Source: Microbotryum violaceum
Lineage: Eukaryota
Direction of reading: 5' to 3'
DNA length: 64,000 bases
Assembly: GCA_001244265.2 (NCBI GenBank)
Contig: CDLV01000004.1
Coordinates: 496,001 to 560,000, forward strand
Shown: positions 5,594 to 61,800 of the stretch, piece by piece
Layout of the letters: each line of letters opens with the position of its first letter
Numbering within the stretch: position 1 is the first letter of the stretch
The notes under the pieces: model-generated
Databases searched by the model: none
Told to the model about the DNA's origin: nothing
What the model saw: the letters and a program-made list of their open reading frames with translations, nothing else
Position numbers and translations under genes: made by a program

Positions 5594-5608
5594 TGTGTCG
5601 TGGCCAAG

Positions 5609-6156
5609 CGACTCGTCACCCCGACAGCGCCTGATGTCCTCCCTTGGCTGAATCTCGAGTGCTGGCTGTTGAGCCGTCGGGGCCAAGAGAAAAGCGATCC
5701 AGTACAACGAAACGAGCCTCGCCTTGACGCGAGGATATTGACCAGAAACCAGCGACCTTCCTTCCTAAGCCATGCCGTAGATCTTGACCAACGCAAACAA
5801 ACGAACCATTCGACGGAATCCAACACACGGCTTAGGAGTAAAAGGAGAAGTGGCTGAAGCGTAGTCAACAACCGAGCAACAGGAATGAGAAGAGAAAGGG
5901 AAGGAAAATAAGGGGGGAAGGAGAGAGAAAAACTTCACAAAGCCTCCAACGCAAAGACAATCGTACTGGCTTGCCGATCGATCCAAGAACGAAAACCGCT
6001 ACTGCGCAAAGTAGAGAGAGAGAGAGAGAGAGGTGCGCAGCCTTCCACTGCGCAACAAGTTTCAAGACAGTCAGCTTCTAAAATGAAAGAGAAGTCAACC
6101 TCCGAAAAAGAAGGGAGGAAAATGGGAAGGAAGGATTTAACTCGGTCATCACACCG
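5609..6156 (-). repeat. Partial copy of the non-coding poly(A) retroposon also found at 11441-11939
   Basis: Colinear similarity from ACTCGTCACCCCGAC to TTAACTCGGTCATCACACC with 11441-11939. Confidence 0.75.
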
Positions 6157-6394: not shown

Positions 6395-9300
6395 TGTTGC
6401 AACAAGGACTAAGAGGTACTCCACGGCTCAGCTCCGAGATACACGAGTGAGATGATGAGAATAGCGTGGCTTTGCAGTAACTAACCTAAGAGGTACTCCA
6501 CGACTCAGCTCCGAGATACACGAGTGAGATGATGAGAATAGCGTGGAGAAGGAACCCAGAAGGAAAAAAGACGCAAAGACAAAGATAGGCGCGCGCGCAG
6601 AATAAAGTATTAACCAAGACTAATAGCAATGAGTTAGGCTCTCAGACCCCACTTCTAACACTCCCACCGGTCAAAGAGACTAACGAGACCATTCCAAGTA
6701 GCGCACGAAGTTGATCAAAGCGTTGAAATCCCAAAGGCTTTGTCATAATATCCGCGGCATTGACGTGGGTAGGGCAGTATTCAAGTTTGACCTCGCCAGA
6801 AGCAACCCATTCTCGAACAAACAAATGAGCAATGTCAAAGTGCTTGGTTCGCATGTGATCGACCGGATCCTTGGCGATCTGGATGCATGCGGCGTTGTCT
6901 TCTTGAATGATAGTAGGCTGTGCTTGTGGAATGCCGACATCACCAGCCAAACAACGGAGCCAGATTGCTTCACGAGTGGCTGAGGATGCAGAGAGGATTT
7001 CGGCTTCGGTAATGGATGTAGCGATCATAGATTGTTGCTTCGACTGCCAGGAGATAACGCCGCCAGCGAGCATTGATGCATAGGCTCCCACCGATCTGCG
7101 AGATTCCGGGTCATCCGCAAACGAGGCATCGGAGTAGACCATCAATCGAGTTGTGGAACTGTTTTGATAAAGAATTCCCAAATCGATGGTGCTGTTGAGG
7201 TAGCGAAATATACGCTTGACCGCAGCCCAATTGTCGACAGTTGGACAGGAGTTCTTTTGAGCAACGGCACAAACAGCAATCGCAATATTGGGTCAACATT
7301 GAGTGGACGCGTACTGCAGGGAACCCACAGCCGATTGGTACAATGACACATTGGCAAATGGAGTAGCATCGTTCGAAGCGAGGGTGATTGTCCATGGGCG
7401 TGACTGCACGGCGCTTGGATGGAGAAGCGAAATCGAACTTCTCGAGCATAGTGCGGACATACTTGCCTTGGTGAACGAGGATGTAATCTTTGGTGCGATG
7501 AATTTCGAAGCCCAGGAAGTAGGAGACGGGTCCGAGACGCTTGAGCTGGAAGGCCTTGTGAAGCGATCCGAGCTCGGAGTCCAAGAAGGACTGATTGTTG
7601 GACGCAATGAGACCGTCGTCAACATAGAGAGTGATGATAGCAAACGAAGTGCCCGAATGTTTGATATAGAGGCAAGCATCGGCAGTTGCCCTCATGTAGC
7701 CTCGAGACACCATGAGATCATTGACGGCTCGATACCATTCACGGGGCGCCTGTTTGGTTCCATACATGGAACCCACAAGCTTGAGGCACTTGCCAGGGGA
7801 TTGAGGATGATTCCATCCTTTTGGGTATCGAACATAGACATCCTCGGTCATCTTGCCGTTGAGAAAGGCGCAGTCGAAATTGAACTGTTCGAGATACAGG
7901 CCCTGAGCAGCAGTCAGAGCAATCAAGAACAAAATTGTCAAAGAACGAGTGACAGGAGCGTAGGTGTCATGGTAGTCGATGCCTGGGTGTTGAGCAAATC
8001 CTTGAGCAACAAGACGAGCTTTGAAACGAATGATTTTGCCGTTTGCATCGCGCTTGATACTGTAGGCCCAGATCATGCCGAGTACCCGAATTCCTTTGTG
8101 CCACTTGACTTCCTGAAAGACTCCATGATGATCAAATTGTAGAAGTTCTGAGACCATTGCCGCACTCCAATGGTTGCGATAGGGTGACTTTATGGCTTCC
8201 TCGAATGTCTTGGGTATCTCGATGTCTTCTTTGGCGAACACGGCAGCACAGTAGGCATTGTAGGAAAGCTTGTCGTGGAACACGGGTGGAGTATCCAAGA
8301 CATCCACCATGATAGCCGAAATGATGGGAAGTATATTTTTGCGGAAGTTGAGGTCGACGACGAGAACCAGCAGGAAGGATGTTGGAAGGATCAACATTCT
8401 CGAATTGGCCAGGATTTGGACCAGTGCAAACGATGGCGTAACCTTCACGAGGAGCGAGAGCGACTTCCGCCTCACCGTCGAGTGGTTCTTCTGCATCATG
8501 ATAGTTATCAGGTCCATCGTCGAGTCCATCATTGTTGTCATTGTTGTCATCCTTACAAGGAACGACTGCAAGATACCCCCCTGTTGACCAACTCCAATTG
8601 GAACCACCGGAGGAGGCTGTGGATCCGGCAAAGTTGGATCCACAACAGGTGAAGTTGGTGTAGACGGCAACATATCTGGCGGAGGATGAGGAGGTTGAGA
8701 ATGATGAACGGGATCAGAAGCGTCCGCACGATCTTGAGACGAAGTGACGACGGAAGGAGTCTCAAGGAATGTGACGTGACGCGAAACGTAGACCTGTTTC
8801 GACGATTGGACCCAGACACGGTAGTTGTATTCACCGGAGTACCCGATGAAAACTTCCTGAATGGAGCGAGGTGCAAGCTTGGAGCGATGCTCCTTGGGAA
8901 CGTGGACAAACGCCGTAGATCCGAATGGCTGAAGATGAGCAAGACTAGGCTTCTTGCCGAGAAGAACTTCGATTGCCGTTTTTCCTTGAATACGAGGATG
9001 TGGTCGACGATTGAGAACAAATGTCGCGATGGCCAGAGCATCTGACCAGAATCGCATGGGAAGACCGGAGTTGAGGAGCATTGATCAAACGAGACCCATG
9101 AGAGATCCATTGAGTCGCTCTACTTGACCATTTTGCTCCGGAGTATAGGGGGCCGTGAATTCCACAATGATGCCCTGCTTTTCAAGAAGAGCCCGGAACA
9201 ATGAGTTGTCAAATTCACGGCCATTGTCCGATCTGACCCTCTTGATTTTCTGACCCGTTTGACGCTCGGACTCGGCTTGAAATTTCGACCATGCTTCGAT

Positions 9301-11176
9301 AATCGTCTCAGCCCTCTTGTCCTTTAGCACGATTGTCCATTTAGCCGTCGAATACTGATCCACGATAGCAAGATAGATAGTATCGCCATGGTGATTGGGA
9401 TGTTCGACAAACCCGAGATCAATGAAGACGCGGTAGAGTGCATGAGGCGCTTCGGTACTCTTGTTGGAGAAGGGTGATCGCTTTGACTTGGCCTGGATGC
9501 ACGAAAAGCAAGGAGTAACCTTTTCGTCCTTCAGAGTGATGCCAGTGATAGCTCCGGATTTGACGGCCAAAACGATTGCCGCAGGAGATTGATGGCCCAA
9601 CTTCCGATGTGCTTCCATCAACGTACAGGTTCCAGTGAGACAATTGGCTCCGACCATTGAAGGCGGTGAGGATGACATGATAGGCTGAACGGGAGCTGCA
9701 TCCATGACAAACCCCCGACCAGGAAGCGAGCGCAGAATCGACTTGCCGCGGATGCTGAAAATGAGATTGCTTTGGGGACCAACAGCGTACGTCATCGATT
9801 CCAACAGACGGTCGATGGCGATAAAACCGAATTGAGCACCGGGCATGTAGTAGACCCTCTTAATGGTGATACAAGCGCCATATGAGGTAAGAAACGTCAC
9901 TGAGCCATGACCGGGAGATTCGATTTGAGATTGATCGGCGACAGAAATTTTGAGAGGCTCAGAGACAACGTCCGATAGGACCGACTTGTCTCCAACGCAA
10001 TGGACCTTAGCACCCGAGTCAATGATCCATGGAAAACGTGGCATCGTTCGCAAATAGGAGAAAGTGTAGGTCATCAATGCAGATTCATCTACACCAATGG
10101 CAGCTACGTTCGAATTTGAGTCCGAGGAAGCGGGAGCGCTCGCATCCTTGTTCCTGCTTGGACAGAGACGCCAACCATGCTCGTGTCCCAGTGCTTTGCA
10201 GCGCGAAAAATGTTTGTTTCGGGAATCAGCCATTTCGACGTTCATCAGGAGTTTCGGATAGAACGTGTTCCAATCCATGTGGATGTCGATGTCGGAGGCA
10301 AGGTTCCCAATGATTGAGTAATACTGGGCTGGGAGCGACCAAACGAGCATGCCTGCAAACAGCCAATGCGGAAGCGGAGCTCCGAGGTTCTGAAAATCGG
10401 ACATGGCGATCTTGACCTTGTTGACGAATTCCTTAAAAGGAATATCCCCAGAGTAAGGTTGCGCTAGAGTGTTGAGGAGGTCCATAGTGCGACTCGGGCG
10501 ACCGTGAGAGTGGAGACCACGGAGGGTGTCCCACATCTCGTACGCCGAGGTAAGATGAATCAAGTGAGACATCTGTTCCTCAGAGATCGAATTGGCGATG
10601 TACTTGCATGCCAAATCGTTGCGGCGGATGGCCTGTTCGCGATATTCCGCGACCTTGTCCGCAACTTGAACGCTGGTGAGCCTGGGCGAGGCGTCCGAGT
10701 GCGCAGAACCAGAGCCCCCCCCCCCCCGCCCAAGCCCGCTAAAGCCGGAGGAGGCTGGTTCAACTGGCGCGACGGACGCAGTTGCATGTGCGATAACGAG
10801 CGTGGACCGATAGTCCGCGACAAGGGAGTTGATGGATTGATTGACGACATCCCATACTTTGTCAGCTCGAAGATTGATAAACGCACGTTGTGACCAGCTC
10901 TTGTACCCTTGTGTGTCCTTGAGATACAAGCGATTGTCCGACCCGTTGGGGAAGTCGGATTCGCCCGTTGAGCTCATAACCTGTTGCAACAACGACTAAG
11001 AGGTACTCCACGACTTAGCTCCGAGATACACGAGTGAGATGATGAGAATAGCGTGGAGAAGGAACCCAGAAGGAAAAAAAAGACGCAAAGACAAAGATGC
11101 CTAGGCGCGCGCGCAGAATAAAGTATTAATCAAGACTAATAGCAATGAGTTAGGCTCTCAGACCCCACTTCTAACA
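6395..11176 (-). mobile_element. Ty1/copia LTR retrotransposon 1, full length, degenerate
   Basis: LTRs 10982-11176 (5') and 6395-6660 (3'), TG..CA. TSD ACGCA/ACGCG. PBS GGTTATGAGC and PPT-like GGTGGGAG. Domain order gag, PR, IN, RT, RH. Confidence 0.95.
6642..10977 (-). pseudogene. Copia gag-pol polyprotein with frameshifts
   Basis: WIIDSGA (PR), HRKLGH..CFSC and RSDNGREF..QNGQVER (IN), RFKARLVAQGF and LYVDD (RT), YSDASF..IQEDN..ADIMTK (RH). Breaks near 9083 and about 7370. Confidence 0.9.
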
Positions 11177-12043
11177 ACGCGGACTCCAACGAGCGGTGAG
11201 TACTGCTGCCGCTTCATAACCCAAGATCGGGAGCGAAGATACTCGAAAACCAGGCAAGAGCGCCTAGGAAAAGAAAGGGACAATATACAAAAAGTCACAA
11301 ACGGGAACACCGAGAAAGGAAAATACTAAAACAAGGGCAAAGGAGGGGAGGAGGGGGGACACACCCGAGGGACCAAGAAAGGGGTCGAAGCCAGGGATAG
11401 AGGTCCCCAAAGACTAACAGGCCACAGCCAAGCCCCAGCTACTCGTCACCCCGACAACGCCCGATGGCCCTCCTTGGCTGAGTCTCGAGTGCTGGCTGTT
11501 GAGCCATTGGAAGTCGGGCAAAAAAACGATCCAATAAAACGAACGAGCCTTCTTCCCGATCCATGCCGTAACGACCATTCCATTCGACGAGATCCATCAA
11601 GCGGCTTGGAGGGAAAAGGGGAAGGCGGCTGAAGCATAGTCAACATCCGAGCGAGACACATGGGAAAAGAGAATGGAAAAGGGGAGAGAGAGGAGATAAA
11701 AAAAAAACAGGGGCACTTCACATAGCCTCCAAAAACAATTGACCCTGCTTGCCGATCCAACATCCAAAAACAAAGATTGCCACTGGGCAAAAGAAAGGAA
11801 GAGAGGTGCGCAGCCTTCCACTGGCCAACAAGTTTCGAGATAGTCAGCTTTCAAAATGAAAGTCGACCTTGGAAAAGGAAGAAAGAGAGAGAGAAAAGAG
11901 GGAGGGAAGGAAGGAAAGACTTAACTCGGTCATCACACCTCCCAATCTCGAGCCCCAGGAACAAAACCCGCCCGAGAGAGAAAATCTCGCTTGAACGCTC
12001 TAAGTGCACTGGGGATCGAGGCGGCTTAACGAGTGGTTAAGTC

Positions 12044-15000
12044 TTTTTTTTTTTTTGTAGAACTTATTCATTATATTGCCCCCAATTCCTGTTCCCCCTG
12101 ATTGGCCTACGGAAAAACTAGATGGAAGTCGACGATGATAACACAAACCGCCCGCAAGATGCGAGAAACGGGCCGGTGTCCACCAATCCGATACTTGGGA
12201 TTCAAGTGCCCGAGCCAAGCGGTTGCTCCCCCAGGAGACGAATGAGAGAGAGAGAAAGAGAAAGAGTAATAAAACAATTGACTAACGACAAGAGGCCCAC
12301 CCGCCGTCACTCCCCAACTCGGTCGAGACAAAGACAGGAGATCGACTGCGCAACTACCCTGACCTGCAAAGTCCTAAGTCTATGCTCGGTCACAACAAGA
12401 TGCGGTGGAGGCCCCTCAAAACCTCCACCTCAGCAGTCCCTGGCCCCTCAAAGCCGACTTTCTGCCTGTGTCCGCTGATCCCTCCCTTGACTCAGAACCC
12501 CGAAGCCAAAGAGCGCGAGTCACCGTCGAGTCAATCTCAAATCGCGAGCCGGTCCATGAGCAACGAAGGCAGACCTGTAATAGATGAAAGATGAAAGCGA
12601 GATATTTAGTATACAATGTTTTGTTGGAAGATGAAGCGTGATGGTGTGTGTGTGTGGGGTGTGGTGGGGGGGAAATTGAACGCAGCCTCTACTGCCCTTG
12701 CCCGCCCCTTGCTCCTCCCGCCCTCAACTTCATCCTCTCCTCCAGCACCACCCTCCTCCTCTCCACGCTTTCAATCATCGTCCCGTGCTTCTGCATCCTC
12801 CATCTCCCACTGCTGATCATCTCCAAAACCATCCCCGTGAAGATCTTGATCATCCAGCCCGCCCCTTCCTGTTCGCTGAGCTTGGCCTTGAGCTTGGGAG
12901 GCCAAAGAGCTGTTGCAGTGTCGTGTACTGGGCGTCCTCGATCGTGTCGCACCCGAGTGCGTCGCAGAGCACGTCCCTTGCCGCGATCCAGACGTTCCGC
13001 GAGTCAACGCAGCCAAAAAAGTAGTGGTCGGTGTTGTCCACCGGCGCTTCGCAGACGAGGCACGCGGGAGAAGTGTTGTGATTTTGTTGATGTTGCAGCT
13101 TGCGCGTTGAGGTGAAGCGGAGAATCAGCTTGAAACAAACTTCCCTCTCCCTCGCCGTCAGTGCCTTCGAGTTGACCACCTTCCAAAAGCTCCTGAGGTC
13201 GTCCGGCTGCGGTGGTCCCTTGAGCCCGAGCGTGTTGGTAAAGGCCTTCACGTTCAGGACCCGGCGGATGTGACGGATGGTGTACGGTCAAGCCATGTTC
13301 AGCAGCTTGTACTGGCTCGCCTGCTGTGGAAGCACCGGGTCCAGAAGGCGCTGCTTCATTGTGAAGCGGGCCATGGGCTTGGGGAGAATCGCCTCGAGCG
13401 GTGCGCTGGTGCCAATCCGGAGGCAACGTTGAGCCGTCCCGCCGCCACCGCCACCGCCAAGGGCGTGTTCTTGTGTCGATCGACAGTGAACCGGTACCAG
13501 GCCGCGATTGCCAGTCGATGCGGGAGCCCGCGTCAATCGTACTCGCTGTTGTTGCCGAGCACATCCGCCGTCGGCGTCCAAAGGTGAAACCCCCCACCCG
13601 CATACAACTCGCGCCGGTAGAGATCCGCCACCTTCGGGTAGCCTTGGAGACGAAGGTAGTCAGGTATATGAACCGCGTTGATGGCCTGTCTCCCTCTGAT
13701 GGGGGTGTGGAGGCTGCCGAGCAAGGTGGGAAGCGCGAGCAGGTTTGCGGTGGTCAAGGTCCTCGGGTTGACCTGCGCGTCTTGCTGTTTCGGAACCCCC
13801 AATGCTGCTCGCCATCGGGATGGAGGTCGCTGGGGATGGGAGTGGATGGATGTGGCCAGAGATCGGTGGCCAGGTCAAGGTCCGACTGAGCTCGCTGGAG
13901 TGCCGTGCGCGCAAGTCCTTGCCAGATCGCGCCCGAACCGTCCCAGATCCGTGCCGCAACCGCGTCCACGACGTCCTGCATCCTGATCACCCCGAGTCCC
14001 CTCTTGAGCTTGGCTGTGAACACAATATCTCTGCCGTAGCTGGTCCTGCCCTTGCCCCCACGGACGAAATCGACGAGCATGTCATCGAGCTTCTTGACAA
14101 CTTCGGGCGGCGGGATGTTGGCTGCAAGGAAGTGCAGGATCTTGGGGATGGCGTACCGATTGACGTAAAAGGCACGGGTGTGGTGTGTGAGCCAGCGATG
14201 CTGAACCCCTTCCAGCGCCGCCTCGAGGCGTTCGATGAGATTCGCGTAGGCGAGTTTGGTGTCGCCGCTCGGGTCGAAGGGGAGGCCGATCCACTCGAGC
14301 GACTCGCCTGCGGCCTTGACGACGAGCGGGTGTTGCCCCGGGTCCCAGCGGCATCCTATCGGTAGGACGACCGTCTTGTCCGTGTTGAGCCGGCCATTCG
14401 TTGCATACCTCCAGTCGAGCGCCAGGTCATTGAGCAGATTGAGTGACTCCAAGCCCGCGACAGCGACAACAATGTCATCGGCGAAAGCAAGTGATGTAAT
14501 GGCGCGGCTCTGTGGGTACGGATGAAGTGCAGGTATGGACAGATTCAGCGCGATGTTTCGACGGTGTAGAGCATCCAGAAACGGCTGAAACACGATGTCC
14601 CAGACCGACGACGACGCCGGGTCCCCTTGGCCGAGCCCACACGTCAGTCGCACCGGCGCCGTTAGGAACCCATTGATGATGTAGCGGGCCGAGGTCGAGT
14701 CACCCGAGTAGAGCATCCTCAGCACGCGAAGAAAGGTGGCAGGAGCGCCCAGAGCGTCGAAGATGGCAAAGATCCAGTCATGCTCGACAAGGTCGTAGGC
14801 GGATGATTGGTCAAGAGACAAGAGCGTGGCCACGGGGAACTCGATCCTGCGCGCGCCAACTTCCTCGATCAGGAGACGAAGGTGTAGTGCAGCGTCAGCC
14901 AATCGGCGGTCCTTGATGAATCCGTGCTGCTGCGGCCGGAGGAGATCGGGTAGAATTTGGTTCAAACGGGCGACATAGACCTTGGTAAAGCTCTTGTAAT

Positions 15001-15487
15001 CGCACTCGCGCAGGGTGATTGGCCGGTACGACGAAAGTTCGGCGCAATCGGCATTCTTCTTGTGTCGCTTGAAGATGAGGCGCACGAGTTCTTGGCCCTG
15101 CTTGGGAGAGAGTGAGCCTCGCTCTATCATCGCGTCGTAGGCCTTGGTCAGCACCTTGGCCCACGCCTTGGGTGCGGTCTGGTAGAGTTCGTAGGGCACG
15201 CCCGACGGTCCCGGCGATCGCCCCGGGTGCGTCGTCCCGATCGCGGCCACGACCTCGTCCTCGGTGATTGGTTGCTGGAGTAAGTCGATCTGCAATTCCG
15301 AGAGTCGGCGCAGAAAGAGAGGATCCGAGCGCGGGTTGTCGCAAGTCCGCGCCGCCCTGATCGGCGCGAGGAATTCGTCCCGAAGTCGGTCGACGCGGTC
15401 CGGGTCACGAGGCTTGATGTGGTAGAGGCGCTGGAAATGCGCCTGCGTGTGGTCAAGAGCGACATCAATGTCATGCGTTAGCTCTCC
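12044..15487 (-). mobile_element. Non-LTR retrotransposon (L1-like LINE) copy A, 5'-truncated
   Basis: T13 at 12044-12056. RT motifs SPGPSG, YRPITL, QHGF, GLGQGDP, LAFADD. C-terminal CLVC..HYFFGC zinc finger. Frameshifted. Confidence 0.9.
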
Positions 15488-21094
<5,607 letters not shown>

Positions 21095-21147: not shown

Positions 21148-23400
21148 ATGGCACCCTTGCGCACCTTGTTCCGAGACACTTGCGCTCGACAAATCACGTA
21201 CTACCTATCAGGCCACAGGTTTCTGCGACACCCGAGGATGAGCCTGATTTCGAGGTGCCCGAGAACTTTCTACAAGACAAAGACCAACAGCGAAGATCGG
21301 ACATGGTGAAGCGCGACCAGCTGTCCGCCTCCAATTGTAGTCAGCACCCGTCGACCGCCCACTCCGACAGCGAGGAAACGATCATCGAAGACAGAGACTC
21401 GTCGCGCAACCAAGTTGATGGAAGCGAGGAGGAAGGCCAAGATCGCAATCTAGTCGACTGGTAGGCTGATCGCTGCAGGAAGTAAACGCCTAGTGATGTT
21501 GACCTTGCTCTTTCAAATCCGTACGATCAACGACCTCGATCTGCAGGTACTCTGAAGACGATGCCGAAAATCCTCTCAATTGGTCTGTACCTCGCAAGAC
21601 CTTTGTGACCTTCTGTATCTCTCTCATCACAACCAGCGTCTAGTGAGTACCTTGTTTGATCTTCGTTGGCTTCGTGGGTGAGTTATCGAGGCGCTGGTGC
21701 TCGTCTAATGTATTCGGTTGGCACCTTCCAGCTCGGGATCGAGTATTTTTACTCGCGGAGTGCAAGAGACGATGCAGACCTGGAGAGTGGGACAAGTTCC
21801 TGCTACCCTCGGTCTGTCCTTGTTCGTCATCGGTTACGCGGTACGTTTGCGGACGAGTGGTGACGGTAGCATGGATGCACACGCACAGCTGGAAGACCTC
21901 CTGCTCTCGGGAGACTGACTCGACTCTGTGTTGTTTATGATGGCACAGCTTGGTCCCATGTTCTTGAGTCCTATGACTGAGATCCCCGCGATCGGGCGCA
22001 CGTTCCCATACATCATCGCCCTCACGATCTTCGTCCTTCTTCAAGTGCCAAGCGCTCTCACCACTTCTTTTTCGTGCTGCGCTTCCTCGCGGGATTCTTT
22101 GGATCGCCCCCACTCGCTACCGGCGGCGCTCGCATCTCCGACATGTTCGCTCCGGACACCCGAACGTTCGCGATGGGTGTCTACGGTCTCTCCGCCGCCG
22201 GTGGCCCAGCTCTCGGACCTGTCATTTCGGGTTTTGCGATCGCCGCCCGGGGATGGCATTGGTCGATGTGGATTTTGCTGTGGCTCTCAGGATTTGCACT
22301 CGTCTTCCTGACTTTCACCTTGACTGAGACTTCTGCGACCAACATCCTCGTTCGCCGGGCGCGCCGACTCCGCAAACTTATTGGGAAGAAAGAACTCAAA
22401 AGTCGAGGCGAGATCGAGCAAGCCAATATGAAACCCATGGATATTGTGCAAATGACCATCATCCGGCCCTAGAAAATGACTTTGACAGAGCCAATCGTCA
22501 TTGCGCTGAACGCTTATATTGCATTTGTGTAAGCTCAACTTTTCCCTTTTTCCTTACTATCTGCTTGTACCGGCGTGAACGTGGTCGAAGACTGATAGTA
22601 TAGTAAACGCACGCTCGTGCTTTGCATTTCAGGTATCACAGGTACGCTGTCCTGTACTGCTGGTTTGAGTCATTTCCCATTGTGTTCCTCGAGGGATACG
22701 GTAAGCGTGGTCTCAGGCACCTCTCAAAGCGTTCTGCAGCATGAACTACCGTGGCTGATCCCGGTCGCGAATTGGCCTATGCAGGCTGGGGTCTTGGAGT
22801 CGCCCAGTTGCCATTTCTCTCGCTGCTCGTGGGCTCCATCCTCGGTTTCGCGGGCATCACGTACTGGAATCAAAACTACTACAGGCCACTGTATAGCAAA
22901 CTTCATGCGAAAGTACCTCCTGAGGAACGACTGGTTAGTCATCCGCCCTTCGGGCCGGGCTGCGAATCCAAGTGCCTTGTAAAGTCCGAACATGTTAACG
23001 ATGTCGTTCATCGGTTTCCCTGCAGTACCCCGCTTTCGTTGGAGCGTTCTGTTACCCGATCTGCCTTTTCTGGTTCGGATGGTCGGCCAACAGGACTTCA
23101 TGGGTGGCACCCGTCATCGCCGCCGCCTTCTTCGGTATCGGGACAACTTGCATGTTCATGAGCGCGCTGAACTATCTTTCAGACGCCTACCCGCGTCACG
23201 TCGCCTCGGCATTGGCCTCCAATGGTATCGTTCGATCATTGTTAGGCGCTGCGGCACCCCTCTTCGCTGGAATCATGTTCCGCAACATTGGAATCGACTG
23301 GGTGCGTAGTGTCCAGGAAACACACTTATTTGCTCATCGCCGCGCTGGCATCCGACCATCACGCGCGCGCTTCCCACCTTCTGTCTATCATAGGGGTGGT
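21148..23400 (+). pseudogene. MFS drug:H+ antiporter (DHA1 family), multi-exon, broken
   Basis: N-terminus MAPLRTLFRD..HPE, LVDW/..D.ENPLNW, LGLSLFVIGY, LSPMTEIPAIGR, LRFLAGFFGSPPLATGG, GPALGPVISGF, NYLSDAYP..ASALASN. Frameshift near 21233, TAG at 22470, C-terminus apparently lost. Confidence 0.85.
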
Positions 23401-43682: not shown

Positions 43683-46600
43683 TCAATTGAGAGACGTTGG
43701 CAACAGGCTGGGTGAACGACCTAGGACCACCTCAAACGGCGATTTGTTTGTTGAGGCGTTGACGCTTGCATTGATTGCAAACTCAATGTTGACCAGATAT
43801 CGGACCCAATTGTTCTGCTGCTTGTTGACCACGGCTCGCAAGGCTTGAATGGCGGTCTTGTTGGTCCGTTCGCTACGGCCGTTGGTTTCCGGGTGGAACA
43901 ATGTAGACATGGCGAGTCAAGTGCCCATCAGATTGTGATACGCGCGCTAGAAATGCGATGTAAATAGCTTATCCCGATCGGAGACTATCCTTGTTGGCGG
44001 TCCAAAGAAGCGGTGCCATCCCTCATGAAAACGTTTGGCTATGTCCTTGGCGGTGTCCGCGGCCAGGCTAGGTATCAAGCGCGTGTAGCCCGATAAACGA
44101 TTGGTGATCGTGAGGAGCATGTCGAACCCCTGGCTCTTGGGCAGGGGGCCCACAAAATTGAGAGCCACCTCCTGCATCAGCCCATCCGGCACAGCCAACG
44201 CATGCGATACCCCCAACGCGCCCGTGGTTGTTGCTTTGGTACGTTGACATACATCACATGTTGAGACATAGGCGTCGCATGATGTTCGCAGCCGCGGCCA
44301 GAAGAAAGTCCGAGACACCTGATGGAAGGTCTTGCGCGGGCTGAAGTGACCCAGCGCATTGTGAGCGATGTGTAAGATGTCCTCCCGAAGCTGTGGCACC
44401 GCAGGTACAACCATCCTACCCTCGAAATACAGCACTCCATCCACACAAGAGAACCCTGGCGACGAATCGAGATTGCGCTTGACCTGCTGGCAAAAGGGAT
44501 CGGAGTCATAGCCCTCCACAAGGCGGCCCCGCAGCTGTGTGTCGATGTCCATCTCTGAAACCGCCTGTACGGAATCAGGCTCCCCCTGCGGGAAAGAGTA
44601 CCGGCTCATCGCGTCTGCCACGGTGTTCTCGCCTCCCGGAATGTAGGTGATGTAGAAATCGTAGTCGGCTAGACGTTCGACCCAGCGGGCCTGACGCTTT
44701 GATAGATTTTCCTGCGTCTTGAGGTACTTCAGTGATTCATGGTCAGAAAGGACATGGAAGTGGACACCCATCAAGTTGACTCGCCACTGACGCAGGGCGT
44801 CCACGACCGCCAAAAGCTCCTGTTCATGGGTCGGGTAGTTGACCTGTGCACTGATGTACTGACGAGACCAATACGCCACCGGGTGTGCCTTGCGCCAATC
44901 CCGCCCCTGAAGCAACATGGCGCCTATCCTAACGTTACTTGCATCCGTCATAACCCAGAGGGGATCAGCGGAATCCGTGCGGTCGATTGGCTTGAGACAT
45001 AGCAGCGAGGTGACAATGGCCTTTATGGCGTTGAAGTGTCGCTCTTGCTCGGCACCCCACATGGGTCGGACATTGGCGTTCTTCGACGTTAAATCCGCCA
45101 GAGGTTTGGTATGTTGGGCCAGACCATTGATGAACTTGCGCAAGTATTGAACGAGGCCCAGAAACCCCCGAAGCTCTGTGACAGTCCGCGGACGCGGCCA
45201 CCCCACGATTTGCTCCACCTTCGACTGATCTGCTGCAATCCCGTTTCGCGAAATGACATGCCCCAAAAAGTCGCAAGACGTTCGAAAAAGTTCGGTCTTC
45301 TTTGGCAAACAATACAGATTGGCCCGCCGCAGCGCCTCGAGTACCTCCTTGACGTGGGTTTGATGATCCTCCATGGTATCCGAGAAGATAGTGATGTCGT
45401 CAAGGTAGGCGAAGCAGCTCTTGCCAATGAGACTAGACAGAGCCTCATTGACCCGGCGTTGATGCGTTGCCGGCGCGTTCGACCGGCCCATCGGCATGAC
45501 AACCCACTCGAAGAGCCCCCAGGGGGTTGCCACCGCGGTCTTTGGTATGTCCTCCTCGGCTATCTTCGTCTGGAAAAAGCTGTTCGTCATATCGATCTTG
45601 GACCAGAAGGGCGCCCGAGCTGCAACGGCCAAAATCTCGTCCGGCAGGGGAAGCGGTGTGCGATCTGGTACCGTTGCTGCATTGAGGATCTGATAGTCGT
45701 TGACCCAACGCGGCATAATTGACGGGTCGGTGTCCATACCCTTCTTGGGAATGATGAAGGCCGGCAAGGAGTATTCCGACGATGATGGGCGAAGACGACC
45801 GGCCGCGAGGTGTTCATCCAGTAAGCGTTGCCACACCGCACGCCAGCGCATCGGAGTGCCGTAGGTTGGTTGCCGCGGAGTCTTCATACCAGGTTTCAGC
45901 GCGATACGATGGCGGACCTTTTACTCGTACTGTAAGACCGGCGGGATGTCTGCCGGAAATCGGTCAGAGAACTCCTTGCGAAATGCGACTTCAAGTGCTC
46001 GCAATTGCGACTCTTCCGCTTGCTGCTCTTCGAGATGAGCGAGACAGGCCCGAATGCTCGCCTGAACCGCACTCTCCGACCATTCCCCCTTCTCCCCCCG
46101 GTGCATCAGATCGATACGCTTGCCGGGTAGGGTTGGATCGGGGGCCAGCACTCGACGCCTTTTGCAGTCGACCAGGATATTGTGTCGCTTTAAGAACGGT
46201 CGCCCCAACACCACTTTCAACAACGTCAATGGCGCAATCTTCAGAACGACGTGCTGGGTAGATGTTGTGGGAAATTAGTAAAGGGTCAGCGGTCCAGAGG
46301 GACTTGTGGCATTGGGAAGTTGGCGCGCGCGTAGTGTGGCGCCGGATGGAGGCAGATGGCGGTGTGGCGTATTGATTGGACTCAGAGGTGGCTTGCACAC
46401 GGATACTATCTAAGGCTCTGGTCTCGTTCACTCTCTCCTTCTTCTTTAACACACACTCGATATCTATCTCGCCCATTCGCCTGCTACAAGTTGATTGACC
46501 TTGGCAATACTCTATCTCACAATAGGTCATCTATGAACGCCGTGTAGCTACAGCAAATCTTCATTCATTCACTGGTACTCCAAGTCCAAATCCACAACAG

Positions 46601-48701
46601 GTTATGAGTTCGACGACTACCACCAATGTATCGAATGAAGGGGACGTCAAGATCACCAAGCTCGGTAAAGATAACTACGAGCTGTGGTCGATCCGAGTCA
46701 ACGCATTCCTCGAAGGTTGTGGCTACAGCAGTGTACTTCAACACGGAGCTGACCGACCATCGAGTATGGATGTGCAAGCATGGAAGACTCTCCATGGCAT
46801 CGACCCAAGTCTAGAGGAGGGCAAGATCCCGACTCTAATCACCAAGTGGGATCGTAGTGCGCGCGCAATCATCATCTCGTGCCTCGATGATTCGAATCTC
46901 AAGATGGTCAAGAGCAAGTCGCTCTCAGCCAAAAACATCTGGGAAAAGTTGAAACAACACCACGAAGGGAACGCTGATCCGTTCAAGATTTGCACGCTAC
47001 TCTACGAGATTTCGAATGCGTCGTACGATGAGGACACCAACCTCGGCGAGTTTCTCCAGGGCATCACGGACAAGGTCGATCAACTCGAAGATCTCGGCCA
47101 AAAGTTCAAGGATGAAGCCATCGTCGCGTTTATGCTTCAAGCTCTACCTCCCTCATACGAGATGCTCAAGCAAGCTATAAAGCTCAGCGATAAGTGCTCG
47201 GTTGACTACGCCGTCAATCGACTTACCGACGAGTACAGTGAACGCAAGCTCACTGGCAAGTACGACAAATTACTCAAGAACGCGGGAGCGTTAGCGGTTC
47301 GCGAAGGCACGCAAGTCAAGCGTGATCCGAACTGCATTTGTCGTGGTTGCAAGGGAACCGGCCATTACCAAATCGATCCGGAATGTCCCAAGTACGATCC
47401 GAACGCCAAACGCGGTCGTAACAAGAACCACAGCAACAAGAAGAAGAAGCAACATAAGCATTCCAAGGGATCTGCGGATTCGGAGGAGTCGGCTTCTTTT
47501 GCGTTGGTGGTCAAGTCTCTCGAGGAGCCATTCGCTTCACATCAACGTCGCAAATAGGGTGTCACAGAACGACCAGAGTGAGATCTGGATCCTGGACACC
47601 GGTGCAAGTCAGCACTACATTGGCAACGCAAGTCTGCTTACCAACCGTCAACATGGAAGTCTGAACGTTCAAACCGCAAGCGGTCAGGTAGTACATTGCG
47701 ACACGTATGGTACGGTACGGTTCAAGTTGAGAAGCGGGGCCTCGCTCTCACTTTTGAACGTCTACCATCTCCCGGGCGCTCCGGTGAACCTCGTCTCGAC
47801 TCGTGCTCTATACCGATCAGGAGCTAGTTGCGGATAGGAAGATGGCAGGGATGTCATGACGATCAAGATCAAAGGGCTGACCGTAGCAAAGACGCTGAAC
47901 GGTACCGGTTACACCCTCGACTTTACGCGCATTGTCGAGGACCAAGCTCATGTTGCAACTCGTGCGACAGTGGGAGCGCCTTTGATGGAATGGCATCGTC
48001 GCTACGGCCACATCGCCGTGAGCTCGCTCAAGGAGCTCGTCAAGTCAGGCGCTGTAGATGGACTAGTTCTCACTGACGAGAAGGTCCACAACTGCGAGCC
48101 CTGCATCAGTTCCAAGTCTCGCGTATCGAAGTTCTCCGAGTTGGTTACTCATGTCAACAACGTCCTTCAACGCGTATTCATGGACATCGGATTTGTCACA
48201 GAAGATCAAGTCGATTTTCAAGGTCGAAAGGCGTACCTGGCTATTGTAGACCAGTACTCGACTGCGAAGTGGACATTTCCGTTGAAGACCAAGTCGGCCA
48301 AAGAAGTCACTTGCGTATGGATTGCATTTCGACATGGTGTCGAGAAGATGACTGGTCGCAAAATCAAGTGCGTTTGCACGGACAATGGCAACGAGTTCAC
48401 CAACAAGCTCTTTGGCACAGATTTCCAAAGTCAAGGAATTCTACATGAGACCTCAGCACCGTACACCCCACAACAGAATGGAACGGTTGAACGCTTCAAT
48501 GGCCGTTGATGGCGATCGTTTGTGCGGTCCTTGCAGCCTCCAAGCTGTCCTGGAAGTACTGGTCTTATGCGATGGAGTACGCCACGTTCGTCGCGAATCG
48601 GGTCCTACACTCCAAGTTGGATGGCAAGATGGCTTACGAAGTTTTCTACGGAAAGAAGCCCAAGGTCTCGCACTTTCGTCCGTTTGGATTGACCGTCTTC
48701 G

Positions 48702-50543
48702 TGTAAGGCCCAGCGTTGGGCCTTGCAGGTGACAGGATACGAGTATGTATTCCAAAGAATAAACTGGTCGGAAAGGAAGAGAGGCCCTACTTTCCGGCAA
48801 TGCCTAAGGCCAGACGCGCATCGGGCCTTTGAGTAACTACAGAGTATTACACTCTCCACCACCTGAACCAAACCCTGCCTCCCTTATCTACTTCTTCTCT
48901 TCTTCATCCTCCTCTTCTTTCTCAGATCCTCCCAGCCATTCATTCTCAAACGCCTCGTCCAATTCCGAGTCACTTGAGTCGGAACCCCACGGTTGACGGT
49001 ATGCCTGGTCGCCCATGAAGTTGAGTTGATCCAGGTGGTCCCCAATTGTCCCGCCTGTCGTCTTTGGGCACTCGCGAATACTATGCCCCATTTCCCGGCA
49101 GTTGAAGCAGCGACCCTCATCAATGCACTGTTGTCGGGCCTCAGCTGTCAATGGTGTGCGCCTTGCCATGTTTGATTTGAGATCCCGTGGCGAGCGAGTG
49201 ATACGGGAGTTGGTGACGGACACTTGACCTTTCCACTCGAGTCCCAGCAAGGAAGCGACCGCCGTCATGTGTCCAATGAGCGAGTTCACTGTGAATGTTG
49301 AGAGTGTAAAGCCGGCAGTTGAGGTGGTACGCGCATACAGTAGGTCGTTGGCGTGATGTAGCAAGTGTCGTTTGAATTGGTCGTCATTGATGAACTTTCC
49401 CCCGTCCTTGCCAATACCCAAGGTTGCGCGCCGACTCGCTAGCTTCGCAGCGTACGTAGTGAAAGAATCCGACCCTTGTCGCGTACGGTAGAAGTCGTGC
49501 TCGGCGGTGAGCACAAAGCCCGAGTCCAGGAACCGTTCCCTCACCTCAGCCGCAAAGGCATCCCATGTCGTCAATGCCTTCAGTTCATCCCTGTGCTGAT
49601 TCCACCAAATTTTCCCTTCGCCCTGCATTTTCATGCCAGCTTCCCTGATTTGTCGAACGACCGTCAACGTCTCATCGGAACGCTTGAGATCCCCGAATGC
49701 CTCGATTGCGTCCTCGCAGTCGCCTAGCCAGAGGATGACGTCCTCCGCCGTAAACGGTGCCTTGAGCTCTGGCATGTGGAGTTGTGTGGGCGCTCGGTCC
49801 GACATCTTCGGCATCGACTTTGGTACGAGATGCGGCGGAGCGTCCTTGTTCGGTGGGGGTCCCTGATCCTTGCTGTTTCTGGTTTGTGGGGCCAGATTGG
49901 AAAGCGGGGCGTCGGCGACGGATGGGCGCGGGCGGGTGGCGGCGATTGCGTGCGAAGCAAAAAAGAAACGAAACCGTGCGGGCGAGCGACGGAGGGGCGC
50001 GTTCGGCGAGCGACGGTGGCGGTCGCGTGCGAAGTGAAAAGAAAAAGGGCGGACGAGCGACGACGGTCGCGTAAACGGCGAACAACCTCAGCAGTTGTGT
50101 GTGACGGCGAACGACCAAGTCGTGTAAGCAATGCGGCGAACGTCTTGCGACGTATGATGTGGACGGCGAACAGAGACGGCTCTGTATGACAAACGACGCG
50201 AGTCGTGTGGGGGTGCGGCGAACGTCTTGCGACGTGTGATGTGGACGGCGAACAGAGACGGCTCTGTATGACAAACGACAAGTGTCGTGCGGGGTGTGCG
50301 GCGAACGACCTGCGTCGTGTGTACGTCGAGCCGGTTTGAAGCGGTGACGGAGTGTTCTTGGCGAATTCTTGTATCGGATGTCAAAAAAAAAATGTAAGGC
50401 CCCAGCGTCGGGCCTTGCAGGTGACAGGATACGAGTATGTATTCCAAAGAATAAACTGGTCGGAAAGGAAGAGAGGCCCTACTTTCCGGCAATGCCTAAG
50501 GCCAGACGCGCATCGGGCCTTTGAGTAACTACAGAGTATTACA
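48702..50543 (-). mobile_element. Non-autonomous gag-only LTR element
   Basis: 150/151-bp LTRs 50393-50543 and 48702-48851, TSD CTTCG/CTTTG, PPT AGGTGGTGGAGAG, single gag ORF, tandem repeats of about 83 bp in the leader. Confidence 0.92.
48888..49814 (-). CDS. Retrotransposon Gag with CCHC zinc knuckle (308 aa, open)
   Basis: AEDVILWL..GKIWW..TWDAFAAEVRERF..RQGSDSFTTY (Retrotrans_gag-like), CFNCREMGHSIREC, acidic tail. Confidence 0.85.
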   Translation of the reverse strand: MPKMSDRAPTQLHMPELKAPFTAEDVILWLGDCEDAIEAFGDLKRSDETLTVVRQIREAGMKMQGEGKIWWNQHRDELKALTTWDAFAAEVRERFLDSGFVLTAEHDFYRTRQGSDSFTTYAAKLASRRATLGIGKDGGKFINDDQFKRHLLHHANDLLYARTTSTAGFTLSTFTVNSLIGHMTAVASLLGLEWKGQVSVTNSRITRSPRDLKSNMARRTPLTAEARQQCIDEGRCFNCREMGHSIRECPKTTGGTIGDHLDQLNFMGDQAYRQPWGSDSSDSELDEAFENEWLGGSEKEEEDEEEKK

Positions 50544-53122
50544 CTTTGCGCAAGTCCCCAAGTCGAAACGCTCTAAGCTCAAGCCAACTTCAGTCAGGGG
50601 AACGTTCATCGGGTATGACAAAGAGTACAACTATCGCGTGCTTGTCGACTCCGATTTGGAACACAAGGTGGTCATCACACGCGACATTGCGGTCTTGAAC
50701 CTGCAACCAGAGGAGGTCCGTGCACCAGAGGTCACGACTTTGCTCAAGGGGCCAGATGAAGATGTGGGTCCTGTCTTGGAAGGCAATGACGCCGGAGACG
50801 AACTTCAGGGTGAGGTTGCTGTAGAGCAGATAGCCCCTGCTCGTCCGAACCGTCCTCGTTGGGAATACAGATATCCCGCGGTTAGGGGTCGAAACCCAGG
50901 CAGGTTTGAGGAGATCGACGCAGGCAACAAGATTCATCAGCGTACTCGTGGCCAAAGACGCATCGCGGAACAACAAGGTCTCTTTGTCACAGATATACCC
51001 GAACTTGATCCCGAACCACCCATCATGTCTGGCTATGCAATGATCAGCACGGATCGACCGGCCGTACCCAGCAGCTACGAAGAAGCAATGAATAATGTCA
51101 AAGCGGACAAGTGGAAGGAAGCTATCCAGGACGAACTCAATGCGATGGATCGTCATCAAGTCCTTGCAGACTCGGATCGTCCCCACGGTGCTTGCGCTCT
51201 CGGTCAAAGTGGGTTCTTGCTCGTAAGGAGAACGCTCAAGGAGAAGTCATTTGTTACAAGGCTCGATTGGTCACGCAAGGTTTTGCACAGCAATCTGGCA
51301 TTGACTACAATGAGACTTTCGCTCTTGTTGCTCGCTCTACAACGATTCTCTTTCTCATCACCATTGCTGCATCCCAAGGACTGTGCCTCGAACAATTCAA
51401 TTACGACTCAGCGTTTCTGAACGGAACGATGAAGGAGATGGTCTACATGAAGTATCCCAAGGGTTGGGATCGTCCTCAGCTTGGCCAAGTCCTTCGTCTT
51501 GTCAAATCAGTGTATGGAACGAAGCAAGCTCCTCGAGAATGGAACTCGGCAGTCAACAAACTCATGGTTGCTTGTGGTTACTCGCGATCTGACGCCGATT
51601 CATGTCTTTACATCAAGCGTGTTGAGGAGATGTTCATCTACATTACTCTTTACATCAATGATGGACTCGCTGCCTCGAACAATCAGACGTTTCTGGATTC
51701 GGAGATCCAAGCTTTCAACAAGGTGTACCAACTCAAGCGACTTGGTCCTGTGAAGGTGTTTCTCGGTCTCGAATTCTTGCGCTTGTCCAAGTTCATCTTC
51801 GTGCACCAGTCCAAGTTCATCAGGAGCCTTGTCGCTACGTATGGCGGATATCACGGATCGAAGCACCCAGCGAAGGTCCCGATGGAGCCCAGGTTGAACA
51901 TGGAACACTCGGTGGAGCTGTTCGATGACATTGCACTCTACCAGTCAGCAGTGGGAGCTTTGCAGTATACTGCGCATCGTGCTTGTCCCGACATTGTCAC
52001 TTCGGTTCGTGCAGCAGCTTCCAAGGTTTCAGCTCCTACCCAGACCGACTGGATCGCGGTGAAGAGGATCATCCGCTACTTGCAAGGTACCATTGACTGG
52101 GGACTCAAGTACAACCTCGAGGGTTTGACTGTGTTCGAACTCTACTCAGATGCCTTGTGGTGAGACGACATGTTGACTGGCAAGTTGATAGGAGCGTTCA
52201 TCTTGATCATGGCAGGCGCAGCAATTTCTTGGCAGAGTAAGCAGCAATCGATGGTTGCGACTTCGACTACTGAGGCCAAGATCTTGGCTGTTTCCGCAAC
52301 AGCAAAGGAGGCCATGTGGCTTCAACGCCTGGCTGCGGATCTCAAGATTCAACAGCCTGGATCTACACTTCTCTGGGAGGACAATCAGGCGGTGATTGCA
52401 ATCGCACAGAACCCGGCTCATCATGGTAAGACGAAGCACTACAGTGTGCATCACTTCTACATTCGCGAGCGAGTTACGACTGGCGACATTCGAATCAAGT
52501 ATTGCAAGACAGGAGCCATGACTGCGGATTGTCTCACCAAGCCGCTCGCTCGCAACTTGTTCGAACTTCATTGTGATGGATTGGGGATGGTATCCCTTGG
52601 AGCCTTGACCAGTGGGAGTGTTGTGGGAAATTAGTAAAGGGTCAGCGGTCCAGAGGGACTTGTGGCATTGGGAAGTTGGCGCGCGCGTGGTGCGGCGCCG
52701 GATGGAGGCAGATGGCGGTGTGGCGTATTGATTGGACTCAGAGGTGGCTTGCACACGGATACTATCTAAGGCTCTGGTCTCGTTCACTCTCTCCTTCTTC
52801 TTTAACACACACTTGATATCTATCTTGCCCATTTGCCTGCTACAAGTTGATTGACCTTGGTGATACTCTATCTCACAATAGGTTAGTTGTAATACATTTA
52901 AACACACACTCAATATCTATCTCGCCCATTTGCCTGCTACAAGTTGATTGACCTTGGCAATACTCTATCTCACAATAGGTCATCTATCAACGCCGTGTAG
53001 CTACAGCAAATCTTCATTCATTCATTGGTACTCCAAGTCCATATCCACAACAGTAGACCATCGGCCATTCAGGGTATGAAGTGGCACACACACAAATTCA
53101 GTGATGGGATGCGAGACCCTGA

Positions 53123-53200
53123 TTTTTTTTTTTTTTTTTTGTATGAGACTTTGGATTGCAACACTAACAGATGTGGGTACCTGAAGCTTCCTCCGTGTCA
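53123..53200 (-). repeat. Short poly(A)-tailed retroposon 3' end
   Basis: T18 at 53123-53140 followed by about 60 bp unrelated to either flank. Confidence 0.4.

Positions 53201-54231
<1,031 letters not shown>

Positions 54232-55913: not shown

Positions 55914-61800
<5,887 letters not shown>

Follow-up and report, generated by a model that had tools for sequence, protein, structure and literature searches.

Two Ty1/copia retrotransposons, here termed copia 1 and copia 2, lie in a 64,000-nucleotide stretch of the Microbotryum violaceum genome (assembly GCA_001244265.2, contig CDLV01000004.1, forward-strand positions 496,001 to 560,000; the window), and both carry long terminal repeats (LTRs) of unequal length. 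In each element the 3' LTR contains a unit, a spacer and a second unit, whereas the 5' LTR contains a single unit. This asymmetry, with an extra block that resembles an intron at its ends, is real and beyond chance. An initial annotation of the same DNA had explained the block as an LTR intron that is spliced from the RNA leader and regenerated in each replication cycle. We lean, with slightly better than even confidence, towards a simpler origin, i.e., that the progenitors had long LTRs and that the short 5' LTRs arose by loss of one unit and the spacer between direct repeats.

Results

Two copia elements with a repeated unit in the 3' LTR

The two LTRs of copia 2 align with seven substitutions over 337 aligned columns and a single 97-nt gap. 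The additional 97 nt of the 3' LTR (52882-52978) are made up of the 19-nt spacer and a second copy of the 78-nt unit, and Tandem Repeats Finder reports a period of 97 with 1.8 copies and 93% matches for this LTR. The block starts with GTTAGT and ends with TAG, and the A of a TTGAC motif is found 27 nt before its final G. When 52882-52978 is taken out, the junction CACAATAG/GTCATC results (the slash marks the joint), precisely as present in the 5' LTR. The LTR lengths, the composition of the block, its splice-like motifs and the exact junction had all been described in this way by the initial annotation, and the LTR alignment bears them out. Unit 2 shows five differences to unit 1 and two to the unit of the 5' LTR. 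No Rfam family matched the LTRs or the window; a suspected resemblance of the spacer to 5S rRNA was hence not supported. A likeness between the unit end with spacer (CACAATAGGTTA) and the LTR end with primer binding site (CACAACAGGTTA) was dropped, as copia 1 shares only AGGTTA.

In copia 1 the block comprises 77 nt (unit plus spacer), has the ends GTTAGT..TAG and is missing from the 5' LTR, where the junction reads TTAG/TCCT. The two units differ at one of 61 sites; the unit of the 5' LTR has one difference to unit 1 and two to unit 2. Copia 1 thus repeats the unit-spacer-unit design with the same polarity. The initial annotation had noted this agreement in an element that it considered unrelated; design and polarity are as it described, but the elements are related: their best-matching pol segments (tblastx) are 48-62% identical at the amino-acid level, and both have the same type of primer binding site.

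The LTRs of the two elements cannot be aligned except for one 10-mer, TAGGTTAGTT, which occurs exactly twice on both strands of the window, namely at the two unit/spacer joints. The joint TAG/GTTAGTT is accordingly identical in both elements, and the probability that a 10-mer agrees by chance between two given positions is about 4^-10. GT..AG ends are given by only one of 84 deletion registers in copia 2 and one of 62 in copia 1, each time the register at the unit/spacer joint. In both LTRs, moreover, a (GC)n block and a CT-rich tract precede the unit. Since architecture and 10-mer joint are common to two diverged families, the long form appears to be inherited. The comparison suggests an LTR architecture in which the joint was kept constant, possibly by selection, while the remaining sequence diverged.

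Table 1. Coordinates of the two copia elements, their LTR parts and the host control intron in the window
Feature	Position	Strand	Remarks
Copia 1, Ty1/copia element	6395..11176	-	nearly intact; one in-frame stop, one frameshift
3' LTR of copia 1, long, 266 bp	6395..6660	-	
Unit 1, copia 1 3' LTR	6486-6546	-	61 nt
Spacer GTTAGTTACTGCAAAG, copia 1 3' LTR	6470-6485	-	16 nt
Unit 2, copia 1 3' LTR	6409-6469	-	61 nt
5' LTR of copia 1, short, 195 bp	10982..11176	-	one unit at 10996-11056
Primer binding site of copia 1	10973-10981	-	same GGTTATGAG type; gag start codon inside
Control intron, host transporter (pseudo)gene, 92 nt	22934..23025	+	donor GTTAGT; TTAAC ~28 nt before 3' end; acceptor CAG
Copia 2, Ty1/copia element	46263..53052	+	LTR pair, Pfam domains, target duplication
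Target-site duplication GTAGA, copia 2	left 46258-46262, right 53053-53057		5/5 bases matching
5' LTR of copia 2, short, 337 bp	46263..46599	+	TGTTG...CAACA ends; one unit at 46448-46525
Primer binding site GGTTATGAG, copia 2	46600..46608	+	directly 3' of 5' LTR
3' LTR of copia 2, long, 434 bp	52619..53052	+	TGTTG...CAACA ends
Unit 1, copia 2, 78 nt	52804..52881	+	end CAATAG
Spacer GTTAGTTGTAATACATTTA, copia 2, 19 nt	52882..52900	+	donor-like hexamer at start; absent from short LTR
Unit 2, copia 2, 78 nt	52901..52978	+	contains TTGAC at 52948-52952; end TAG

Anatomy of the elements

Both elements have a copia-type gag and an rve domain upstream of RVT_2, as in Ty1/copia. The Pfam order in copia 2 is Retrotran_gag_2, gag_pre-integrs, rve, SH3_retrovirus and RVT_2, and matches in copia 1 are Retrotran_gag_2, Pol_BBD, rve, SH3_retrovirus and RVT_2. 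Copia 2 is degenerate and dead; its reading frames are disrupted, and its integrase region contains a nested insertion. The target duplication of copia 1 is ACGCA/ACGCG, with four of five bases matching. A purine tract ending in GTGGGAG immediately precedes the 3' LTR of both elements. Presumably it is the anticodon stem-loop of initiator tRNA-Met that anneals to the primer binding site. In copia 2 the gag ATG at 46604 falls inside this site, as does the gag start of copia 1, and the entire 5' untranslated region of either element is therefore contained in the LTR.

We compared the window with contigs of 24 public sequencing runs, and all figures given below for these runs come from the matches listed. 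Contigs, one in each of four runs, join 46257 to 53053 with five shared letters, i.e., they represent an empty site and thereby confirm the ends of copia 2; they are possibly paralogous copies, since the flank of copia 2 is part of a Ty3 element. The insertion nested in copia 2 (48701-50547) is a 1.85-kb non-autonomous LTR element with terminal direct repeats of 153 bp (99% identical) and a minus-strand gag with a zinc knuckle. In three runs, contigs of the copia family lack this insertion. Copia 1, for its part, is located about 250 bp inside an old pair of direct repeats (5604-6155 and 11434-11939; ~550 bp, 74-86% identity) and its target may have been an older LTR element with a short internal region.

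Probable loss of one unit and the spacer

The losses of 97 nt and 77 nt correspond exactly to one unit plus spacer, with direct repeats of 78 and 61 nt at both deletion ends. We therefore agree with a caveat of the initial annotation, namely that recombination between the direct repeats yields the same junction. The conserved TAG/GTTAGTT joint accounts for the GT..AG ends, and splicing is unnecessary to obtain the junction. Nothing in the short LTR corresponds to the copia 2 spacer, and the 64-kb window contains no second copy of it at up to four mismatches, hence the long form is not a simple tandem duplication of the short one. Ectopic crossover between different copies is excluded by the target duplications, which are intact in both elements.

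Deletions of this kind are frequent with retroviral reverse transcriptase, where a 110-bp direct repeat was deleted at 41% in one cycle, where LTR enhancer repeats of 50-75 bp are unstable, and where template-switching rates are alike for RNA- and DNA-templated synthesis (as reported in PMC3187697). In human immunodeficiency virus 1 (HIV-1), LTRs asymmetric from birth were found in 26 of 88 proviruses and ascribed to misalignment in reverse transcription (PMC9278108). The window itself contains a further case of an unstable repeat. The leader of the element nested in copia 2 has a tandem repeat of 82 nt in 2.3 copies (50132-50318), and a contig of run X16 departs from it by one unit. The joint in this contig, from 50154 to 50237, has the ends TG..TG, and units are thus lost or gained here without splice-like ends.

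As a background for LTR symmetry we used a metagenome scan that gave 80 copia loci of 27-40% identity, which are distant elements and not family members. Their LTR pairs are equal in length within 1 nt in 19 of 19 cases, and none has an internal direct repeat; asymmetry therefore goes with the repeat. These 19 pairs, several of which represent the same family twice, were taken from 32 direct-repeat rows. The 13 rows dropped were seven contig-end repeats (L006, L026, L031, L036, L039, L054, L059), two from L010 (a ~2-kb repeat with a 39-nt offset) and four short ones of low identity (L021b, L047, L050, L055b). Two distant copias with the same type of primer binding site, L069 and L080, have a ~20-nt tandem duplication in the presumed U3 of both LTRs, i.e., a symmetric counterpart. 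A scan of viral contigs for related loci gave no match.

The short form of the copia 2 LTR also exists elsewhere, as a 337-nt contig equal to 46263-46599 (run X13, record 9) and as a contig equal to 46276-46597 (run X17, record 25). The X13 contig has a word depth of 681 compared with 74-110 for internal contigs; this depth is not a copy number and was not used as evidence. Among the contig matches listed, none bridges the spacer (52882-52900) or contains the 97-nt joint, which is uninformative on an absence of the long form because rare variants drop from contigs.

From these data we infer that the long form is ancestral and that the deletion may have taken place during plus-strand synthesis. 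A progenitor LTR would have consisted of the CT-rich tract, a unit, the spacer starting with GTTAGTT, the second unit and the U5 end. One unit and the spacer would then have been lost when the template was switched between the direct repeats of 78 nt (or 61 nt). The most economical time for such a switch would be when plus-strand strong-stop DNA is made, because this product is the sole template for both strands of the 5' LTR; with the 3' LTR retaining the long minus strand, the element would be born with a short 5' and a long 3' LTR. If the switch came as late as the final extension of the plus strand, only a heteroduplex at the 3' LTR would result. Alternatively, replication slippage or single-strand annealing after integration could produce the same sequence, with no bias in polarity.

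Several observations weigh against this explanation. The same polarity in two of two elements is somewhat unlikely if asymmetric births or later deletions are minority outcomes, and deletion alone leaves the identical donor-like joint in two families unexplained. Whole contigs in other runs have the short form, and beyond the two copies of this window no long-form copy was seen among the matches listed. The unit comparison is inconsistent as well: the 5' unit is nearer to unit 2 in copia 2 (two vs five differences) and nearer to unit 1 in copia 1 (one vs two). The sites at which units differ are mostly TCG/CGA, as are largely those that distinguish the LTRs, and this is the target reported for repeat-induced point mutation (RIP)-like mutation in Microbotryum (PMC10502011), and parallel hits at these hot spots are therefore likely. 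Relative to contigs of four runs, copia 2 (46000-53300) shows per run 38-56 A>G, 39-52 T>C, 7-17 C>T and 10-21 G>A differences. The copy in the window mostly has A/T where other copies have G/C, which fits heavy C-to-T mutation of this copy.

Host introns compared with the blocks

The only clear host gene in the window encodes a disrupted major facilitator superfamily (MFS) transporter (~21148-23301), whose best named relatives are Microbotryum proteins with 91% amino-acid identity. From alignment with Microbotryum homologues we obtained five introns of ~80-110 nt with the donors GTAGGC, GTGAGT, GTACGT, GTAAGC and GTTAGT, branch motifs of the type yTRAy, and the acceptor CAG in all five. Use of the GTTAGT donor in the host is thus a single inferred example. 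At 77 and 97 nt the blocks are close to the host introns in size, 77 nt being just below their range. The acceptor is TAG in both copias compared with CAG in 5/5 host introns. A yTRAy motif in the interval expected for a branch site, 10-40 nt before the acceptor, is provided by TTGAC in copia 2; none was found in the 77-nt block of copia 1.

Discussion

Splicing, gain and artefact as alternatives to the proposed deletion

The initial annotation regarded the block as intron-like, and in part this stands: GT..AG ends occur only at the unit/spacer joint, the donor-like 10-mer is present in two families, and GTTAGT is an inferred donor in the host. What fails is the step from an intron to heritable asymmetry. 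Its full model, in which a leader intron is spliced and then regenerated in each cycle by annealing of strong-stop cDNA to the second unit, so that short 5' and long 3' LTRs are a heritable state, does predict the right polarity in both elements, and the 5' unit of copia 2 is indeed closer to unit 2, as it would require. In the canonical scheme, however, minus-strand strong-stop DNA made on R-U5 is transferred to the 3' R and extended, and plus-strand strong-stop DNA, which then templates the 5' LTR, is made on the very minus strand that also forms the 3' LTR (PMC3187697). Because both LTRs derive from one minus strand, a spliced leader followed by strand transfer gives symmetric LTRs: cDNA of the spliced leader would yield short/short elements when annealed to unit 1 and long/long elements when annealed to unit 2, never short/long, and a regenerated block would show in both LTRs. 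Moreover, the 5' unit of copia 1 is closer to unit 1, and unit 1 would never be homogenized, yet the units differ at just 1/61 and 5/78 sites where other LTR sequence is beyond alignment. The canonical scheme and the near-identical units contradict the regeneration model, and we give it very little credence. The polarity count proposed with it cannot separate splicing from deletion, since deletion in plus-strand strong-stop DNA also predicts a short-5' bias.

A less demanding version would have the block as a spliceosomal intron of the 5' untranslated region, with long-leader transcripts spliced at GTTAGT..TAG and short LTRs as cDNA of spliced leaders. Several features speak for it: the sole GT..AG register coincides with the unit/spacer joint in both elements, AG/GTTAGT is kept across two families, GTTAGT equals an inferred host donor among loose host donors, the block sizes approach those of host introns, TTGAC is present 27 nt before the AG of copia 2, and the whole 5' untranslated region is inside the LTR. 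Precedents exist in the LTR-internal introns of maize (PMC13192763) and in another basidiomycete, where introns raise expression and transposon transcripts contain poorly spliced introns (PMC5851062). Against it, no yTRAy was found in the copia 1 block, both blocks end in TAG where the five host introns have CAG, and unit 2 only copies the exon and adds nothing specific to an intron. The block is also missing from both 5' LTRs, the very copies that are transcribed into the leader. Reverse transcription of spliced RNA would give short/short rather than short/long elements, so that asymmetry needs an extra step, e.g., plus-strand transfer between DNAs from spliced and unspliced co-packaged RNA, and such a transfer predicts no polarity. 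As short LTR DNA exists in the X13 and X17 contigs, a junction read by itself would be no proof of splicing. On balance, we consider an intron of this kind unlikely. Equally doubtful, if not slightly more so, is a combination of both processes, in which a copia lineage of anther-smut-like fungi would keep a true intron wholly within R-U5, composed of the donor-bearing spacer and a duplicate of the upstream exon, with a selected TAG/GTTAGTT joint; spliceosome and reverse-transcriptase template switching would then yield the same intron-less LTR, and short-5'/long-3' elements would be born by unit loss in plus-strand strong-stop DNA.

If, conversely, the short form were ancestral, the 3' LTRs would have gained spacer and unit de novo, by aberrant strand transfer or by repair with filler DNA. 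The whole-LTR contigs of X13 and X17, both short, and the lack of a long copy outside the window among the matches listed agree with such a gain; it would, however, be needed twice, in two families and with the same 10-mer at the same joint, and the spacer would have come from a source with neither a template in the window nor an Rfam match. We regard this origin as quite improbable. An assembly artefact by repeat stutter has nothing specific in its favour except that the block is unbridged in the contig matches listed. Two sequences separated by 46 kb show the pattern, five sites in copia 2 and one in copia 1 distinguish the units, and the spacers are unique sequence, which leaves an artefact with next to no probability.

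Two further ideas on the joint were rejected. GTTAGT read in antisense as the reverse complement of a branch motif ACTAAC fails because no conserved antisense donor is possible in the flanking DNA. Intron birth by tandem duplication of an AGGT segment does not fit either, as both short LTRs lack the spacer and the short junction of copia 1 is AG/TC, not AG/GT.

The likeliest reading is thus the mundane one, deletion between direct repeats, and the conserved donor-like joint remains the point of interest. A 5' splice site is one possible role for TAG/GTTAGTT.

Sequence context of the window

The window is rich in transposons; over most of its length Pfam detects pol genes of the Ty3 and copia types. 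A Ty3-type element at 55943-61605 has a chromodomain integrase and 374-bp LTRs; these lack an internal repeat and share 99.5% identity, which makes a young insertion probable. Two adjacent copies of a ~3.4-kb unit (12047-15167 and 15488-18648) are ~80% identical, and a minus-strand frame of at least the first, the copy scanned with Pfam, encodes an RVT_1 reverse transcriptase. The MFS gene (21148-23301) has in-frame stops and at least two frameshifts and is likely a pseudogene. At its intron 22934-23025, homologue P0003 joins ...PPEERL to FPAF... across the intron, and P0002 is annotated as reading through.

Implications

Insertion dating and 5' LTR genealogies, as in a Microbotryum study (PMC10502011), rest on the assumption that LTRs are identical at insertion. 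A lineage with an unstable internal LTR repeat would yield elements that are asymmetric at birth, which would bias such estimates and could mislead LTR-finding tools. If the block were truly spliced, it would be a compact fungal LTR-internal intron and a natural system in which splicing and reverse-transcriptase template switching converge on one product, and it would bear on retention versus loss of introns in retroelements. If it is not spliced, the conserved 10-mer still flags an unknown cis element in the LTR.

Comparison with known systems

By all features tested both elements are ordinary Ty1/copia elements. As in Drosophila copia and yeast Ty5, which are primed by a half-tRNA (PMC5371799), the primer binding site GGTTATGAG directly follows the LTR, and its type is that of metagenome copias with GGTTATGAGCCC. 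For half-tRNA-primed copia or Ty5, the literature searched describes no unit-spacer-unit LTR. The literature searched on unequal LTRs, LTR introns and Ustilago or Microbotryum retrotransposons likewise contained no unit-spacer-unit LTR and no fungal LTR intron.

In maize, canonical splice junctions lie wholly within LTRs (2026 preprint, PMC13192763), as the block does in our elements, where splicing is hypothetical. The maize LTRs are kilobases long, with introns of ~1.3 kb on average in non-coding, LTR-contained transcripts, and the parts of the preprint considered here do not describe an exon-copy structure or LTR asymmetry. Introns born by duplication of an AGGT segment (Hellsten et al. 2011, PMC3265369; PeerJ 2016, PMC4974935) share two traits with the block: a copy of the upstream exon forms the end, and removal restores the unduplicated sequence. 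The AGGT model requires that the full segment with its GT side be present once before duplication, whereas here the spacer is missing from the short LTR.

Parallels are also found in retroviruses. Asymmetric LTRs in HIV-1 (Joseph et al. 2022, PMC9278108) likewise show a large indel between 5' and 3' LTR from birth; in the usual case (24/26), however, the 5' LTR is intact and the 3' LTR deleted, with no designed repeat at the bounds, whereas the copias described here have their short LTR at the 5' end. In retroviral direct-repeat deletion by copy choice, one repeat and the intervening sequence are lost exactly, as here; such deletion is frequent for repeats of ~50-110 bp and possible in DNA-templated plus-strand synthesis (PMC3187697). 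Our elements differ from retroviral LTR repeats in that the repeat is located just upstream of U5 instead of forming an enhancer array in U3, and in that the units are separated by a unique spacer whose donor-like start is conserved; the timing of the deletion is inferred.

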